A stretch of DNA of 64,000 nt from a virus (IMGVR_UViG_2687453623_000004), one strand, 5' to 3'; counted from the first letter of the stretch, positions 4,022-37,165 are shown. Numbers and translations are program-made. Notes: a model not told the origin generated them from the letters alone.

Positions 4022-5227
4022 TTAAACCCCTTTGACAACGTCAGCGTTGACCTGTGGAACCCCGATTTCAGCGGCCAGATTCATGGCGGCTATTACCAGG
4101 TTACTGACGGCCAGCGGATACAGCAGGCTGACCATATTTTTACGGTGACTTCCCGGATTGCTCAGGCGGGCACGTATGGCATCCACTGCACCGGCGTCCA
4201 TAATGTCCGTCAGCTGTTTACCGGCCCGTTGCAGTTTGAACGTCAGAAATTCTTCAAGGTTATTGTCCAGAGGCAGAAGTTCGACCACCTCACAGCGCTG
4301 AACGACTTCACGGACTTCCATATTGCGTTCAGACAGTTTTGTCGCCAGTTCCGGCTGGCCAATCAGCACGATGGACAGCAGTTTTTTGAAACCGGACTCC
4401 AGCTCAAAAAAGCGTTTGAGGTGTTTCAGTGTCGGAATGGGCAGACTGTGGGCCTCCTCAATCACCAGAACGTGGCTGAACCCCGCCTGGCTGCTGTCTT
4501 TCAGGACGCGATGCAACTGGCGAAAACGGGCGTCCTGACTGCGTCTGATGCTTTCCAGTGGTGCGATGGTACTGATAATGGCTTCGGCAATAGCTGCTGC
4601 CTTCAGGGTTTTCCCTTTCACATCGTTGTCTTCCATAGCGATGATGTATGGCTCGATAACAATTACCGGCGCATTCTCGCGGTTGATACGTTCAGTCAGG
4701 TCGCGGCGCAGCGTGGATTTACCCGCACCGGACTCACCGATGACGGCCATAAACCCACCATGACGGGCTGTCTGGTACAGCGCCTCACGCACGTAGCGAA
4801 TGTCCGGGGTGGTGAACACATCATCAGAACCCTGCATGGCTTCGTCGGCGAACGGGTCACGGAAAAGACCAAACGCTTTTTTGGTTGCTGGAAATAACAC
4901 CTGTTTTTTGAGTAACATATTCTCTTCCTCACTGAGGCTCGTTTTATCTGTGGTACCCGCTGTACGGGGCGTGGCCGCGCCCTGTACAGCATCAAAACTC
5001 TTCGTTGTATCAATCCCCTGACTTTCCAGCCAGGACGCAAGACGCCGGCGCACTTCTCCGGGGCTGGTGCGGGGCCACGCGTTATGATTCACAATCTGGG
5101 CCAGCGTGGCCTCAGAAACATCGACAGCTCTCGCCACCACCGCCTGTGGAATACGGGCCTCTTTCAGTTGCTGCTTCAGTACCAGCATGTTTCCCTCCTC
5201 AGTTGCCGTTAACAATGCTGATAACAC
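4022..5227 (-). CDS. Transposition helper ATPase (Mu B / TniB-like P-loop protein)
   Basis: Walker A GESGAGKST; directly downstream of and overlapping the transposase gene; true start may be an internal Met. Confidence 0.7.
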   Translation of the reverse strand: MLSALLTATEEGNMLVLKQQLKEARIPQAVVARAVDVSEATLAQIVNHNAWPRTSPGEVRRRLASWLESQGIDTTKSFDAVQGAATPRTAGTTDKTSLSEEENMLLKKQVLFPATKKAFGLFRDPFADEAMQGSDDVFTTPDIRYVREALYQTARHGGFMAVIGESGAGKSTLRRDLTERINRENAPVIVIEPYIIAMEDNDVKGKTLKAAAIAEAIISTIAPLESIRRSQDARFRQLHRVLKDSSQAGFSHVLVIEEAHSLPIPTLKHLKRFFELESGFKKLLSIVLIGQPELATKLSERNMEVREVVQRCEVVELLPLDNNLEEFLTFKLQRAGKQLTDIMDAGAVDAIRARLSNPGSHRKNMVSLLYPLAVSNLVIAAMNLAAEIGVPQVNADVVKGV

Positions 5228-32913: not shown

Positions 32914-33484
32914 GCCATTACAACTCCCGCCACCGCTTGAGGGTGATATCAGTCTCAGGACGCTGGGAAGACTGGCAGGACGGCTGGATAACATCGACCT
33001 GAGCGTACTGATGGTCTTTCTCGTCGATATCGTCGACAGTTCCGCGCTGCCATGGCTGGGCGAGCAGTTCTCACTGTCTGGCGATGGCTGGGAGCTGGCG
33101 GAATCGGACGATGTTCGCCGCATGCTTATAAAAGCAGCCATCGAACTGCACCGGTATAAAGGGACGCCGTGGTCAATCCGGGAAGTTATCCGCCGTTTTG
33201 GCTTTGGTGAAGTGGATCTGATTGAAGGCACAGGTCGTCTCAGTTACGACGGCAATCGCAGCTATAACGGACTGTTTGTTCATGGAGATGCAGCCGCCTG
33301 GGCAGTTTATCGCGTTATTCTGAAACAGCCCATTACTAACGATCAGGCCGCGATGCTGCGTCAGACGCTGGCTGCATTTGCACCGGCCCGCTGCCATCTG
33401 GCCAGCCTGGAGTATCAGTCTGTGGCCATTCGCTATAACAATACCGCCATCCATGATGGCAGTTATAACCACGGGAGCAGTTGA
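32906..33484 (+). CDS. Baseplate protein (gpI-like)
   Basis: 192 aa, coupled to the tail-fibre gene. Confidence 0.6.
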   Translation: MTEPLQLPPPLEGDISLRTLGRLAGRLDNIDLSVLMVFLVDIVDSSALPWLGEQFSLSGDGWELAESDDVRRMLIKAAIELHRYKGTPWSIREVIRRFGFGEVDLIEGTGRLSYDGNRSYNGLFVHGDAAAWAVYRVILKQPITNDQAAMLRQTLAAFAPARCHLASLEYQSVAIRYNNTAIHDGSYNHGSS

Positions 33485-34734
33485 TTATGGGAAACCTGAA
33501 TGAAACAGAAAAGTGGGAAGAAAATATCTATCAACTGGAGACATCAGATCCGGTTCTGGGTGGTGCAGACGGGATATCAAATCGAGCCCCCCGGCAACTG
33601 GCAAACAGGACGAAATGGCTGAAGAAGAAAACGGAGGAAGCCGCACAGTCACTGGCTGAACACGTACGTTCCCGTAACCACCCGGACGCGACACTGACAG
33701 CTAAGGGGTTCACCCAACTGAGCAGTGCCACCAACAGCACCTCTGAAACGCTGGCCGCCACACCAAAAGCGGTCAAGGCTGCATACGACCTGGCAGCCGG
33801 CAAGGCGCCTGCCAGCCACACTCACCCGTGGAGTCAGATAACGGGAGTGCCTGCGGCTTCACTGACGGCAAAAGGCACCGTACAACTGAGCAGCGCCACG
33901 GACAGTCAATCAGAAACTGAGGCTGCCACGCCGAAGGCGGTCAAGGCTGCATACGACCTTGCAGCCGGCAAGGCGCCCGTCAGCCACACTCACCCGTGGA
34001 GTCAGATAACGGGAGTGCCTGCTGCCTCGCTGACGGCAAAAGGCACCGTACAATTGAGCAGTGCCATCAACAGCACGTCTGAAATACTGGCCGCCACACC
34101 GAAAGCGGTCAAGGCTGCATACGATCTGGCAAACGGAAAACAACCGGCAGATGCCACGCTCACTGCTCTGGCAGGACTTGCCACTGCAGCAGATCGGTTG
34201 CCTTATTTTACCGGAGCAGACCGCGCAGAGCTGGCAACCCTTACAGCTATTGGTCGCGCTATTATCGCTAAGGGCAGTATAAAAGATGTCCTCAATTACC
34301 TTGGTTTGGGGGAAGGCTCGGCGCTGCCCGTTGGTGTACCTGTTCCGTGGCCCACTGCCACACCGCCAGCAGGCTGGTTAAAGTGCGACGGGCGCGCCTT
34401 TACAAAAGAACAATATCCTGTTCTGGCCAGAGTCTACCCGACCCTCCGTCTTCCCGATTTACGCGGTGAGTTTATCCGTGGATGGGACGACGGGCGAAAA
34501 GTGGATACAGGGCGCGATCTGCTTTCACGGCAGGATGGTACAAGTTTTTCTCATTACGCAGGTAATTTTGACATTGGGTCTGGTCATTCAATCAATAACT
34601 ATGACCAAATCGTTGACAACCAACCTGGATTCTCCCGTTTTTCATTTGCAGGTCCTTCGCGAGGCGATGGGGTTAATTATGTGACCATTCGTCCCCGTAA
34701 CATTGCGTTTAATTACATCGTAAGGGCGGCATAG
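33481..34734 (+). CDS. Tail fibre protein S (constant part plus currently expressed C-terminal cassette Sv1)
   Basis: 417 aa; repeated TAKGxxQLSSAxxSxSE...[16 protein letters not shown] units; C-terminus ...[14 protein letters not shown]. Confidence 0.75.
   Translation: MIMGNLNETEKWEENIYQLETSDPVLGGADGISNRAPRQLANRTKWLKKKTEEAAQSLAEHVRSRNHPDATLTAKGFTQLSSATNSTSETLAATPKAVKAAYDLAAGKAPASHTHPWSQITGVPAASLTAKGTVQLSSATDSQSETEAATPKAVKAAYDLAAGKAPVSHTHPWSQITGVPAASLTAKGTVQLSSAINSTSEILAATPKAVKAAYDLANGKQPADATLTALAGLATAADRLPYFTGADRAELATLTAIGRAIIAKGSIKDVLNYLGLGEGSALPVGVPVPWPTATPPAGWLKCDGRAFTKEQYPVLARVYPTLRLPDLRGEFIRGWDDGRKVDTGRDLLSRQDGTSFSHYAGNFDIGSGHSINNYDQIVDNQPGFSRFSFAGPSRGDGVNYVTIRPRNIAFNYIVRAA
34289..34314 (+). 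promoter_or_regulatory. Putative Gin/Hin-type crossover site A inside S
   Basis: TCCTCAATTACC-TT-GGTTTGGGGGAA resembles hix/gix half-sites (ACC-TT-GGTTT core); begins a ~210-bp segment repeated at 34740 and, inverted, at 36130-36346. Confidence 0.45.
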
Positions 34735-34753
34735 AAACGTTGGTTTGGGGGAA
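34730..34753 (+). promoter_or_regulatory. Putative crossover site B (direct) immediately after the S stop codon
   Basis: CATAGAAACG-TT-GGTTTGGGGGAA. Confidence 0.4.
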
Positions 34754-35206
34754 GGCTCTGCATTGCCTGTTGGTGTACCGGTTCCATGGCCCACCGCCAC
34801 ACCGCCAGCAGGCTGGTTACAGTGCAACGGAGCTACGTTCACCAAAGAACAATATCCTGTTCTGGTCAGAGTCTACCCGACCCTCCGTCTTCCCGATTTG
34901 CGCGGTGAGTTTATCCGTGGATGGGACGGTGGTCGCAAGGTTGATACCGGGCGTGCGCTACTTTCATTTCAGGAAGGGACTATCGTATCCGGTTTTGATG
35001 ATAATGATACCGGAGATATCAGTTCGCTCGGCTCTACACAATACGGATTTGGTGACGCTTTAACCTCTAATCAACTGGGGGTCTTAAATGGCAAAAAGTG
35101 GATATTTGATGCATCCTCTAAAGGTGCACAAAGATATGACTGGTGGGCTTATGTATCAGCTCGCCCCCGCAATATCGCATTTAACTATATCGTGAGGGCG
35201 GCGTGA
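34745..35206 (+). other. Silent alternative tail-fibre C-terminal cassette (Sv2), no upstream constant region in frame
   Basis: Homologous to the S C-terminal region (PVGVPVPWPTATPPAGWL ... [14 protein letters not shown]) but diverged in the middle; lacks an independent start context. Confidence 0.5.
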
Positions 35207-35212
35207 TACCGT

Positions 35213-35827
35213 TCAGCCGGCAAGCGCCAGTGGCGCTTCCGGCCAGCTGATTTCAGGTGCCTTGCTGATATCCAGTGCGTTCAGCTCGTCGATATAATCC
35301 AGCACGGCGTTCAGTTTTGCCGTTTCTTCTGGTTTCAGACTGCGACCAGCACGCAGTTTGAGGTTGATAAGATCGACGGACGCCATCGCCTGTTTCACCC
35401 GTTGCTGGCGTTGCTGTCTGGCAACCTCCAGTTCTGCGGCTCGCTGCCGTTCAGTATCGGTTACCCACGCCTCACCGTTCCAGGTATCCCATGGCGTGGC
35501 TGGCTGTTTTGTGGTGGTGTCCGCCGGGTAATCACCCGGTTGGGTAATCAGAACGGGGTTACCGTTCTCCGTGCTGTATACCGTCTCGCCGCGGTGATCA
35601 GGCACATGCTCCCACCCGTTCAGCGTGGCAGTCCGGCAAACCACGTAACCCGAAATTGCTTCCGGCGGTGCATCGGCGCACGAATGTGCCGGAGTACCCA
35701 CCCCAAGGGCGAGATACTCCACAGAGGATGAGGTGTATTCCCGGGTTTCCTCGTCATAGTGATATACAGTGATATCGCCCGCTACAGTGGCGATACCGTT
35801 TTCATCCAGAACTGCAGTGTTACTCAT
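35213..35827 (-). CDS. Tail fibre assembly protein (U'-like), inverted orientation
   Basis: 204 aa; C-terminus ...ISWPEAPLALAG typical of Tfa family. Confidence 0.6.
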   Translation of the reverse strand: MSNTAVLDENGIATVAGDITVYHYDEETREYTSSSVEYLALGVGTPAHSCADAPPEAISGYVVCRTATLNGWEHVPDHRGETVYSTENGNPVLITQPGDYPADTTTKQPATPWDTWNGEAWVTDTERQRAAELEVARQQRQQRVKQAMASVDLINLKLRAGRSLKPEETAKLNAVLDYIDELNALDISKAPEISWPEAPLALAG

Positions 35828-36309
35828 TAAACTGCCCTCACAATGTAATTAAGTGCAATGCTACGGGGTCTGACAGTGATACCCTTCGCATACCCGCTTC
35901 TGATAGAGGTCAGAATAGTAGCCTGCATACCATTGTCTGACATTGCCACGACAGGATCGCTGAATGTTGTCCCGTCCGGCATTTTAAAGCTGCCCTCACG
36001 AAGGTCTGTAATGGAATCTTCATTGTTGAATCCCATGCCGACTATCCCCGAGGTTCCCGTAGTGTCCTGGTTATAATAATCCAGCATTGCTGTTCTTAAC
36101 AGCGTTGCCCCTTGTGCGGACAGCAACTTACGTCCTGTATCAACTTTGCGCCCGTCGTCCCATCCACGGATAAACTCACCGCGTAAATCGGGAAGACGGA
36201 GGGTCGGGTAGACTCTGGCCAGAACAGGATATTGTTCTTTTGTAAAGGCGCGCCCGTCGCACTTTAACCAGCCTGCTGGCGGTGTGGCGGTGGGCCACGG
36301 AACAGGCAC
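35827..36309 (-). other. Inverted alternative tail-fibre C-terminal cassette (Sv3)
   Basis: Begins PVPWPTATPPAGWLKCDGRAF..., ends ...RPRSIALNYIVRAV; its 5' ~210 bp is almost identical to S at 34301-34512 in inverted orientation. Confidence 0.6.
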
Positions 36310-36320
36310 ACCAACGGGTA

Positions 36321-36346
36321 GCGCCGAGCCTTCTCCTAAACCAACG
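36321..36346 (-). promoter_or_regulatory. Putative crossover site C (inverted)
   Basis: Reverse complement GATAAACG-TT-GGTTTAGGAGAA. Confidence 0.4.
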
Positions 36347-36407
36347 TTTATCTCTCAAATCCTCCCCACATTATCTCAGTACTTTAACCACTCAAAAGGG
36401 AGTATTT

Positions 36408-36983
36408 TTAATGCTGATTGGCTACATACGTGTGTCAACAAATGACCAAAACACAGATTTGCAACGCAATGCATTAATGTGCGCAGGATGTGAACAGATT
36501 TTTGAGGACAAAATGAGCGGAACCAAGTCGGAACGACCAGGCCTGAAACGCGCTTTAAAGTGCCTTAAAAGAGGGGATACATTGGTGGTCTGGAAGCTGG
36601 ATCGGTTGGGTAGAAGAATGAAACACCTCATTGCTCTCACAGAAGAGCTACGCGCAAAAGGTGTCAATTTTCGCAGTCTGACGGATTCAATCGATACCAG
36701 CACTCCGATGGGAAGGTTCTTTTTTCATATGATGGGTGCACTGGCAGAAATGGAGCGTGAACTGATAGTTGAGCGCACGCTGGCTGGACTGGCTGCTGCG
36801 CGAGCACAAGGAAGAGTTGGAGGACGTCGCCCGAAACTGACGAAGGAGCAGCATGAGCAGATCGCAAGATTGCTCCAGAAAGGGTATGACAGAAAGCGGC
36901 TGGCAATTATCTATGATATTGGACTGTCAACGATCTACCGCTATCACCCTGTTGGGACTGTCATAACGCAACCTGAAATGTAA
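36408..36983 (+). CDS. gin: Serine DNA invertase (Gin/Hin/Pin family)
   Basis: MLIGYIRVSTNDQNTDLQ ... catalytic Ser motif and C-terminal HTH; start at internal Met of the track ORF. Confidence 0.85.
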   Translation, partial: LMLIGYIRVSTNDQNTDLQRNALMCAGCEQIFEDKMSGTKSERPGLKRALKCLKRGDTLVVWKLDRLGRRMKHLIALTEELRAKGVNFRSLTDSIDTSTPMGRFFFHMMGALAEMERELIVERTLAGLAAARAQGRVGGRRPKLTKEQHEQIARLLQKGYDRKRLAIIYDIGLSTIYRYHPVGTVITQPEM

Positions 36984-37011
36984 TTCTTTTTCAAATAATG
37001 AAACGCCGCGT

Positions 37012-37061
37012 GGATGCCATTTATCGCACAAGATAGAGTGCATTTATCGCGCGGCGCATCA
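37012..37061 (-). repeat. Right terminal inverted repeat with two CATTTATCGC motifs
   Basis: CCATTTATCGCACAAG and GCATTTATCGCGCGGCGCATCA; resembles Mu attR-type repeated A-protein binding sites (from memory). Confidence 0.55.
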
Positions 37062-37067
37062 TTCTTC
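37062..37067. repeat. Right copy of 6-bp target-site duplication TTCTTC
   Basis: Read directly after the prophage end ...GCGCATCA. Confidence 0.6.
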
Positions 37068-37165
37068 ATGTGAATCATCCGTTGATTAATTATATATAAA
37101 CATTATGTATCAACAAGTTACATTGATAATTAACGCTACCATTAATAAAAATACCCCACAAGGTC

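Follow-up and report, generated by a model that had tools for sequence, protein, structure and literature searches.

The switch region described here comes from E. coli ST131, a pandemic clone, in which it forms the right end of a transposable, BcepMu-like prophage named Phi2 in strain EC958. This region is very probably a DNA-inversion switch of the Gin/Pin (Din) family with three crossover sites, which changes the tip of the prophage tail fibre and gives four isomers and three tips. The elements of the switch, with their coordinates in the window (the whole stretch of 64,000 nucleotides that was analysed), are listed below.

33487..34302, + strand: Sc, the constant 5′ part of S; open reading frame (Pfam PF03406, 4.7e-56)
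34289..34314, + strand: site A, inside S; L tail TCCTCAATTACC, core TT at 34301-34302, head GGTTTGGGGGAA
34300..34734, + strand: Sv1 cassette, 144 aa, now fused to Sc; Collar (PF07484); inside segment X
34728..34753, + strand: site B; X tail GGCATAGAAACG, core TT at 34740-34741, head GGTTTGGGGGAA
34739..35206, + strand: Sv2 cassette, 155 aa, silent, direct; Collar (PF07484); at the left end of segment Y
35213..35827, - strand: U′, tail-fibre assembly (chaperone) gene; Caudo_TAP (PF02413, 5.6e-27)
35827..36345, - strand: Sv3 cassette, 172 aa, inverted, silent; Collar (PF07484)
36331..36356, - strand: site C; R tail GAGAGATAAACG, core TT (AA on the + strand, 36343-36344), head GGTTTAGGAGAA
36411..36983, + strand: Gin-family serine DNA invertase, 190 aa; Resolvase (PF00239, 8e-51) and HTH_7 (PF02796, 1e-12)
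36432..36495, + strand: putative recombinational enhancer, with the 15-mers GTGTCAACAAATGAC (36432-36446) and GCGCAGGATGTGAAC (36481-36495)
36984..37061, + strand: prophage right end, ...GGCGCATCA; homology with copies of the same prophage elsewhere ends here

The same prophage is inserted at fliZ in L011 and at an NRPS gene in L007, and the homology with both copies breaks off at 36984..37061. By this comparison, the switch is the final module of the prophage.

Each of the three crossover sites is 26 bp long and consists of a 12-nt ‘tail’, a TT core and a conserved ‘head’, GGTTTRGGRGAA. Two half-sites are arranged around the common TT core in all three sites, and the GGTTTRGGRGAA half-site is found in every one of them. 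The 21-nt core pattern has three occurrences in the 64 kb, compared to 0.00 expected (100 shuffles). The arrangement proposed in an earlier note, with site A within S, site B at the S stop in the same orientation and site C inverted next to the invertase, is confirmed by the coordinates. The S stop codon (TAG, 34732-34734) is located in the left half of site B, and this half-site is the most degenerate among the three. Sites A and B are direct, and the inverted site C precedes the start of the invertase by 54 nt. In their length of 26 bp, TT core and imperfect half-sites, the sites agree with the consensus of the invertase family, and Table 3 of Forde 2014 (PMC4134206) marks A and C as matching this consensus. 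The halves of site A match halves of the EC958 sites Phi2_5prime and Phi2_3prime in the same table.

A homology block of ~230 bp starts at each site and encodes the head of the tail collar. The arms at A and C (229 nt) are 94% complementary, and their earlier description as nearly identical is correct. The direct repeat at A and B is 244 nt long (85%), and the arms at B and C are 231 nt long (86%). The block length of roughly 210 bp suggested before is therefore slightly short of the measured 229-244 nt.

Sc contains three 168-nt Phage_fiber_2 repeats (33692-34195) and is an in-frame repeat-number variant of the S genes of relatives (542-611 aa). The three receptor-binding cassettes expected from the earlier note (Sv1 fused, Sv2 silent and direct, Sv3 inverted) are all present, each with a Collar domain and each read in frame from the core. 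The collar of Sv1 is homologous to T4 gp37 (PDB 2xgf). U′ had been named as the only assembly gene, located after the inverted Sv3, and a single Caudo_TAP gene is indeed found, the start of which overlaps the Sv3 stop (TAATG). The region thus has three cassettes and one tfa, which belongs to Sv3. The statement that the expressed variant has no co-oriented assembly gene holds for the isomer in the window. A solved structure matching U′ by sequence was not found. The protein names of the source are generic in this region, and the PGAP annotation gives S as a pseudogene and the silent cassettes as separate ‘phage tail proteins’.

The assignment of the invertase to the Gin type is borne out by its two domains and by the match of residues 1-181 to the Mu Gin structures 4m6f and 3uj3 (E = 2e-93). 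It is ~80% identical to Mu Gin. The putative enhancer consists of two G-N13-C 15-mers located 49 bp apart, at nt 22-36 and 71-85 of gin, which are candidate Fis sites of the kind known from the Hin and Gin enhancers. Both 15-mers are kept across four invertase genes (including Mu gin and two from P2-like phages), also at synonymous positions, and the longest invariant run in the alignment of these genes is nt 73-85. Fis and the enhancer are probably needed for switching. Sites A and B, which are in direct orientation, are stably retained together, and the system presumably has a strong preference for inversion over deletion. Other Din invertases are also present in ST131, and the isomers may owe to one of these acting in the same cell. 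For Phi4, action in trans is argued in Forde 2014 (PMC4134206).

In the proposed mechanism, one serine invertase would act on any pair of inverted sites among the three 26-bp sites, with strand exchange at the TT core. Each site is made up of a variable tail half and a conserved head half, the latter providing the first codons of a cassette. Two segments are invertible: segment X (34303-34739) carries Sv1, and segment Y (34742-36342) carries Sv2 on one strand and U′ and Sv3 on the other. Isomer 1, L-X+Y+-R, the state of the window, has Sc-Sv1; isomer 2, L-Y-X--R, Sc-Sv3 followed by U′; isomer 3, L-X+Y--R, Sc-Sv1 with U′ co-oriented downstream; and isomer 4, L-Y+X--R, Sc-Sv2. A single inversion takes each isomer to two others. 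A population of lysogens could then release virions with three alternative collar-domain tips, presumably for different receptors, as a form of bet-hedging. The three fibre tips probably differ in host range or receptor.

The three sites allow four arrangements, and all four are found at the same aroA locus. The predicted isomers, 4301-nt products generated in silico by cutting at the TT cores, were compared with real genomes. The prediction for isomer 2 matches strain 4/1-1 at 4301/4301 positions (100.000%), that for isomer 3 matches AR_451 at 4301/4301 (100.000%), and that for isomer 4 matches LS4 at 4300/4301 (99.977%). The inversion isomers expected from the earlier note are therefore seen in public genomes, as three non-parental arrangements matched at 99.98-100%. 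Isomer 1 is represented by the window and at least 30 genomes. Paired junction positions add H105, AR_0055 and AR_0058 for isomer 4, Ecol_542 for isomer 3, and 2/0 and 81009 for isomer 2. In all the fetched loci, every junction has an intact tail-TT-head, and only the four permitted arrangements are observed. The A×C inversion (2042 bp, core to core) overlaps the B×C inversion (1603 bp). The idea that successive inversions give three variants is likewise upheld: Sv3 is reached by A×C, and Sv2 by A×C followed by A×B, or by B×C followed by A×C. The Sc-Sv3 fusion occurs in strain 4/1-1 and the Sc-Sv2 fusion in strain LS4. A recent preprint interpreted one of the isomers as a ‘translocation’.

The junctions were also counted in 5,426 complete genomes, using 120-nt probes and identity bands, with records taken at at least 99% identity. 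The L tail is joined to the Sv1 head in 160 records, to the Sv2-type head in 196 and to the Sv3 head in 201; for the R tail the corresponding numbers are 275, 153 and 107. These counts pool related modules of P2-like prophages and P1-like plasmids, the Sv2-type head is common to the Sv4 cassette of two-site relatives, and the 99% bands include some partial matches (an estimated 30 records or so), which makes the counts approximate. The X tail is present in the parental B junction in ~245 records and in the recombined B junction (X|C-head) in ~233. For the junction of the X tail with the Sv1 head, which is impossible by inversion, no exact full-length match was found among the 5,426 genomes. 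About one in ten complete E. coli genomes has the three-site (X-type) module. An exact number of genomes for each isomer was not derived from the junction counts, as the equations disagree by ~43 records. This mismatch is due to modules with other tails, multi-copy prophages, Sv4 with its Sv2-type head, and partial matches. Whole-region queries were also rejected for counting isomers, as pieces on the same strand are joined and isomers 1/4 and 2/3 both pass 80% coverage.

In Mu and P1, each S variant is paired with its own U. The layout here is different, with Tfa accompanying only Sv3, and a search for sigma-70-like promoters for independent expression of U′ predicts none inside the invertible region, with total counts below the shuffle expectation. 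These observations would be consistent with a switch that is real but in which Sc-Sv3 with U′ is the sole state to provide a functional fibre, Sv1 and Sv2 being non-infective ‘off’ states or decaying remnants. We consider this unlikely. The one-Tfa layout is kept at ~75% nucleotide identity in the P2-like module of EPEC, and is also found in a P2-like prophage, in P1-like plasmids and in two-site relatives. Moreover, the Tfa-less cassettes Sv1, Sv2, Sv4 and Sv5 are all intact open reading frames, and the pN/pS ratio of Sv1 is ~0.27 (from 11 substitutions only). Sv1 is expressed with U′ co-oriented downstream in isomer 3. In comparison, Sv2 is never co-oriented with U′, because both converge inside one segment. 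The tips with Sv1 and Sv2 probably fold without a cis-encoded Tfa.

The repeats at the three sites, with lengths of 229-244 nt and identities of 85-94%, are adequate substrates for homologous recombination, and RecA-dependent exchange between these ~230-bp blocks, instead of site-specific exchange, could be considered as the origin of the isomers. Such an origin is very improbable. Crossovers made by homologous recombination would be spread over the block and give chimeric heads, but the recombinant heads keep all the diagnostic SNPs, which begin 6 nt from the core and number five within 56 nt. The tails have essentially no homology, and the exchange is therefore confined to ~7-13 nt at the edge of the block. 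Exchange takes place at the core or within a few bases of it. In addition, the sites fit the 26-bp consensus of the invertase family, and the X|Sv1 junction, the product expected from unequal exchange, is the one that has no exact match in the genomes.

The activity of site B distinguishes the three-site switch from a two-site (A×C), Mu-like one, in which B would be a dead relic of cassette duplication and Sv2 would never be expressed. Forde 2014 (PMC4134206) describes Phi2 with two sites and one 2067-bp invertible segment, and the degenerate left half of B could be read in the same way. On the other hand, isomers 3 and 4 require B, and they match the core-cut products at 100% and 99.98%; site B is therefore active. 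The recombined B junction is also about as frequent as the parental one (233 vs 245 records). The matches of isomers 3 and 4 already refute a dead site B, an extremely improbable reading of the locus. B is the only one of the three sites at Phi2 that is unpublished.

Assembly artefacts of a repeat-rich locus, in which short-read assemblies break and the record of phage PhiKM is misjoined after the A head, can be dismissed as the source of the isomers, as each junction is found in hundreds of complete genomes, the fetched loci have only the four permitted arrangements, the forbidden junction has no exact match, and independent evidence comes from PacBio reads (Forde 2014, PMC4134206) and PCR (Goldberg 2014, PMC4272514). 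PhiKM was not accepted as a different isomer, as its record is a partial, misjoined assembly. The two-site relatives AR_0086, AR_0067 and phage 503046 were rejected as products of A×B deletion, as they carry Sv4 instead of Sv2 and a longer Sc.

The locus in EC958 (Forde 2014, PLoS One, PMC4134206) is the same as that in the window, in the same clone. In an EC958 culture, the two orientations related by A×C were both seen among the PacBio reads, with an inversion of 2067 bp. The 26-bp sites reported there correspond to A and C in recombined form, one with the L tail and the Sv3 head, the other with the R tail and the Sv1 head. The model has two sites and two mirror-image alleles, and site B, Sv2 and isomers 3 and 4 are not found in the part of that paper available to us.

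A close precedent is the P2-like prophage of EPEC E2348/69, with three repeats, a choice of three C-termini and four variants that PCR confirmed to exist side by side (Goldberg 2014, Genome Med, PMC4272514). In both modules, Sc is followed by a site, a 144-aa Sv1-type cassette with its stop, a second site and a second cassette, and then by tfa and the third cassette, both of opposite orientation, a site and the invertase (NC_011601.1, 1891695-1893703 in EPEC). Both have the TT core and the GGTTTGGGGGAA head, and they have almost the same variable part of Sv1. Of the 190 residues of the invertases, 160 are shared, and the nucleotide identity of the modules is ~75%. The modules differ in the type of phage (P2-like in EPEC, BcepMu-like here), in the second and third cassettes, and in the tail half-sites.

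Related multi-cassette modules occur on P1-like plasmids of ~90-98 kb. The Min system of p15B has six (mix) sites and many more isomers. It is an older precedent for a multi-site switch (Sandmeier, Iida, Arber 1990-1992), with a serine invertase of the Din family, more than two sites, overlapping segments and alternative 3′ ends of a tail-fibre gene (PMC6109161). As in the Min and Goldberg systems, more than two sites are used in Phi2 and in-frame cassettes are joined to one Sc; the module is homologous to that of EPEC.

The G segment of Mu with Gin (and also P1 Cin and e14 Pin) has 26-bp sites with a GGTTT..GGAA head half, as observed here, and in Mu the switch is likewise at the right end of a transposable phage, adjoining the invertase gene and producing an Sc-Sv fusion. 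Mu has two sites, a TC core (TTATCCAAAACC TC GGTTTACAGGAA for gix), 34-bp repeats and an S/U and S′/U′ pair, with a U for each Sv. In comparison, Phi2 has three sites, a TT core, ~230-bp repeats and three cassettes with one U. The TT core is also present in the e14 site (Goldberg 2014, Table S1, PMC4272514). The R64 shufflon similarly selects C-termini of an adhesin-like protein by multi-site inversion, but it uses the tyrosine recombinase Rci and acts on PilV at the pilus tip, whereas the Phi2 enzyme is a serine invertase.

BcepMu-like, P2-like and P1-like elements all carry this module, and it is possible, although we suggest this with some reserve, that its crossover sites also recombine from one prophage to another. 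Strain 4/0 has a P2-like prophage with the module, and its Sc-side site seems to have been joined by recombination to the site on the invertase side of Phi2. This would have inverted 43.7 kb of the chromosome, aroA-serC included. After the inversion, two unrelated prophages (P2-like H and BcepMu-like S) appear to face each other and to take their fibre tips from a common cassette pool, and the other pool seems to be silent, with an invertase gene on either side. Should this hold more widely, the sites of phage invertases would be a driving force both for large inversions of the chromosome and for phage lineages exchanging host-range cassettes.

The three-site design is not novel, as Goldberg 2014 (PMC4272514) and Min of p15B precede it, and nothing is added to the mechanism beyond these systems. 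The states of the locus are relevant to genome assembly and annotation. The three-site switch corrects the published two-site account of a prophage in the most widespread multidrug-resistant E. coli clone; the locus has four states and three tips. In predicting host range for ST131 prophages, or for phage-plasmids with the same module, these extra states must be counted.

The three homology blocks described in the earlier note are borne out by the sequence. The arms at crossover sites A and C (229 nt) are 94% complementary, those at B and C are 231 nt long (86%), and A and B form a direct repeat of 244 nt (85%). Each block has a 26-bp site at its outer edge, in which a TT core separates a 12-nt variable half-site (the tail) from a 12-nt conserved half-site (the head) that opens the cassette. 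The 21-nt core pattern has exactly 3 occurrences in the 64 kb and 0 in 100 shuffles, and all junctions of all fetched comparison loci are intact tail-TT-head.

Features of the switch region
33487-34734, tail-fibre gene S (constant 5′ part Sc), Phage_fiber_2 repeats and Collar domain
34289-34314, site A, TCCTCAATTACC TT GGTTTGGGGGAA
34303-34739, segment X, with cassette Sv1
34728-34753, site B, same direction as A, GGCATAGAAACG TT GGTTTGGGGGAA, left half contains the S stop codon
34742-36342, segment Y, with Sv2 on one strand and U′ and Sv3 on the other
36331-36356, site C, inverted, GAGAGATAAACG TT GGTTTAGGAGAA
Sv2 and Sv3, Collar-domain cassettes
U′ (tfa), Caudo_TAP assembly protein
Last gene, invertase, Resolvase and HTH_7, matching Mu Gin structures (E = 2e-93)

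Sv1, Sv2, and Sv3 share a near-identical 76-aa head, homologous to the T4 gp37 collar, and a common 14-aa C-terminus, with a variable core of 55-85 aa in between. In ST131, S is marked as a pseudogene by PGAP in RefSeq ('incomplete; missing N-terminus'), and the silent cassettes are labeled as separate 'phage tail proteins'. Alignment with relatives shows that S is an intact, in-frame repeat-number variant, with three 56-aa Phage_fiber_2 repeats as compared to five or six. The wider cassette pool (loci L002, L007, L008, L011, and L012) includes Sv4 (159 aa), which two-site relatives have opposite tfa in the place of Sv2, and Sv5 (155 aa), from the X′ segment of a P2-like prophage. Head blocks form mosaics across lineages, as in L008, where an Sv3 body has an A-type head start. 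The A and C heads of the window (34303-34495 and 36150-36342) have 5 differences in the first 56 nt past the core and are then identical over ~137 nt, a patchiness suggestive of gene conversion among the heads. Immediately past the stop codon of Sv2 (35196-35216), GGCGTGATACCG TT CAGCC resembles the half-site GGCATAGAAACG TT without the head half, and may be a vestige of an ancestral tandem cassette array.

As each site has one tail and one head, and A and B run in the same direction and C in the opposite one, inversions alone allow four arrangements of X and Y between the L tail (Sc side) and the R tail (invertase side). Isomers 3 and 4 depend on site B.

Predicted isomers
Isomer 1, L X+ Y+ R, the window, Sv1 expressed
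Isomer 2, L Y- X- R, Sv3 with U′ expressed
Isomer 3, L X+ Y- R, Sv1 expressed
Isomer 4, L Y+ X- R, Sv2 expressed

The window was cut in silico at its TT cores and rejoined into the four 4301-nt isomer sequences, which were then compared with aroA loci taken from fetched genomes. Isomer 2 is identical to strain 4/1-1 (4301/4301), isomer 3 to AR_451 (4301/4301), and isomer 4 matches LS4 at 4300/4301 positions. The inversion isomers that the earlier note proposed to look for are thus present in public genomes. The note's observation of an invertible tail-fibre region is confirmed, and its interpretation is supported. Paired junction-match positions place 2/0 and 81009 with isomer 2, Ecol_542 with isomer 3, and H105, AR_0055, and AR_0058 with isomer 4.

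Junctions were counted with 120-nt probes (60-nt tail and 60-nt head) against 5,426 complete genomes, a record being counted if its best place was at least 99% identical. The heads differ from each other at 5-10 positions within these 60 nt.

Records per junction (partial matches are included, which makes the counts upper bounds, by about 30 records; related modules are pooled)
L tail: Sv1 head 160, Sv2-type head 196, Sv3 head 201
R tail: Sv1 head 275, Sv2-type head 153, Sv3 head 107
X tail (after the Sv1 stop): Sv2-type head 245 (parental B), Sv3 head 233 (recombined B)

Qualitatively, it is clear that site B is recombined about as often as it is parental. The control junction of X tail and Sv1 head, impossible by inversion, has no exact full-length match in the 5,426 complete genomes. 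Its best matches are three records at 99.2%, and their one mismatch would fit a variant X′ tail as in strain 4/0. R-tail/Sv3 junctions in AR_0081 (NZ_CP027534.1, ~47,350) and DA33135 (NZ_CP029576.1, ~19,226) are megabases away from the L-tail junctions of the same genomes, and could be extra transposable-prophage copies or further large site-mediated rearrangements.

The assembly gene tfa follows only Sv3, which it overlaps (TAATG). Sv2 and U′ converge within one segment, and therefore are never co-oriented. U′ is antisense in isomer 1, and is co-oriented downstream of Sc-Sv1 in isomer 3. No promoter-like sites were predicted within the switch region. The Tfa-less arrangements of Sv1 and Sv2 may, less probably, be dead 'off' states. 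However, all of the examined relatives keep the one-tfa layout: two-site BcepMu-like prophages (Sv4 replacing Sv2), a P2-like prophage (Sv5, Sv3 with tfa, Sv4), P1-like phage-plasmids, and the three-repeat, four-variant module of a P2-like prophage in EPEC E2348/69 (Goldberg 2014, PMC4272514), at ~75% nucleotide identity. Moreover, every Tfa-less cassette is intact, and Sv1 has a pN/pS of about 0.27, an estimate based on few substitutions. This recurrence and intactness favor tips that would fold without a cis-encoded Tfa, or would use Tfa supplied in trans. The conserved Tfa-less cassettes may deserve follow-up.

All recombinants keep the diagnostic SNPs of the heads as close as 6 nt to the core, and the tails have essentially no mutual homology, so that exchange is limited to about 7-13 nt at the repeat edge. 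RecA crossovers between the repeats would instead be spread over 230 bp, and the narrow zone has the expected signature of exchange at the 26-bp sites. Two G-N13-C 15-mers near the start of the invertase gene (within nt 1-85) are shared with Mu gin and with a pair of P2-like invertase genes; the longest invariant run of the alignment, synonymous positions included, is nt 73-85. The 15-mers are a putative recombinational enhancer, in which they would be the counterparts of the Fis sites known from Hin and Gin. In the Hin enhancer, AT-rich ATTTA and TAATG segments lie between the Fis sites (McLean 2013), and the matching interval here is ...GATTTGCAACGCAATGCATTAATG...

The window is from E. coli ST131. 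JJ1886, O25b:H4, and many other genomes match region 33400-37100 from end to end at 100% identity. A transposable prophage adjoining aroA and serC has the switch at its right end, and this prophage is 'Phi2' of EC958 (Forde 2014). The partial phage record PhiKM, classed as Bcepmuvirus and annotated with transposase and Mu-like genes, is 100% identical over the shared part. In other strains the same prophage is inserted at fliZ and at an NRPS gene. Homology to these copies ends at 37061 (...GGCGCATCA), and the element therefore has the switch as its final module.

P1-like phage-plasmids of E. coli and Salmonella also carry the switch module (L012 and L013; NZ_CP032875.1, a 92.5-kb plasmid), and their invertase protein is identical (WP_000904922.1). 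Two 92,538-bp plasmid records have the module in different isomers. Plasmid homology stops exactly at the prophage right end (37061), which suggests that the module came to the plasmid along with the end of a BcepMu-like phage. P1-like plasmids of ~90-98 kb commonly have related multi-cassette modules.

Strain 4/0 (L003, NZ_CP023849.1 996354-1006473; L008, 950000-964000) has both Phi2 and a P2-like prophage with the same kind of module, which has its own invertase, an R1 tail (AAAACGAAAACG), and an X′ tail (GGCATAAAAACG). The Sc-side site of the P2-like prophage and the invertase-side site of Phi2 appear to have recombined, giving a 43.7-kb inversion with aroA-serC inside it. The two tail-fibre genes now point at a single cassette pool; the second pool lies between the invertase genes and is silent. 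This rearrangement, in which every junction is an intact tail-TT-head, comes from one assembly only and may deserve follow-up.

The EPEC locus (NC_011601.1 1891695-1893703) resembles the window in gene order, TT core, and GGTTTGGGGGAA head; the Sv1-type cassette is near-identical, and the invertases share 160/190 residues. Goldberg 2014 describes three alternative C-termini there, and four variants whose co-existence was validated by PCR. The older p15B Min system is another multi-site precedent with a serine invertase. The switch is an ordinary example of a kind of system described before. In the part of Forde 2014 (PMC4134206) available to us, both A×C orientations of the locus are seen in PacBio reads, and two sites and a 2067-bp segment are listed, with site B unmentioned. 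A 2026 preprint on ST131 wound isolates has an unexplained 'translocation' in a 'Burkho_phiE255' prophage; we take this prophage to be Phi2, and read the event as an isomer change. The present analysis exceeds the published annotation of the locus because the third site, B, is active.
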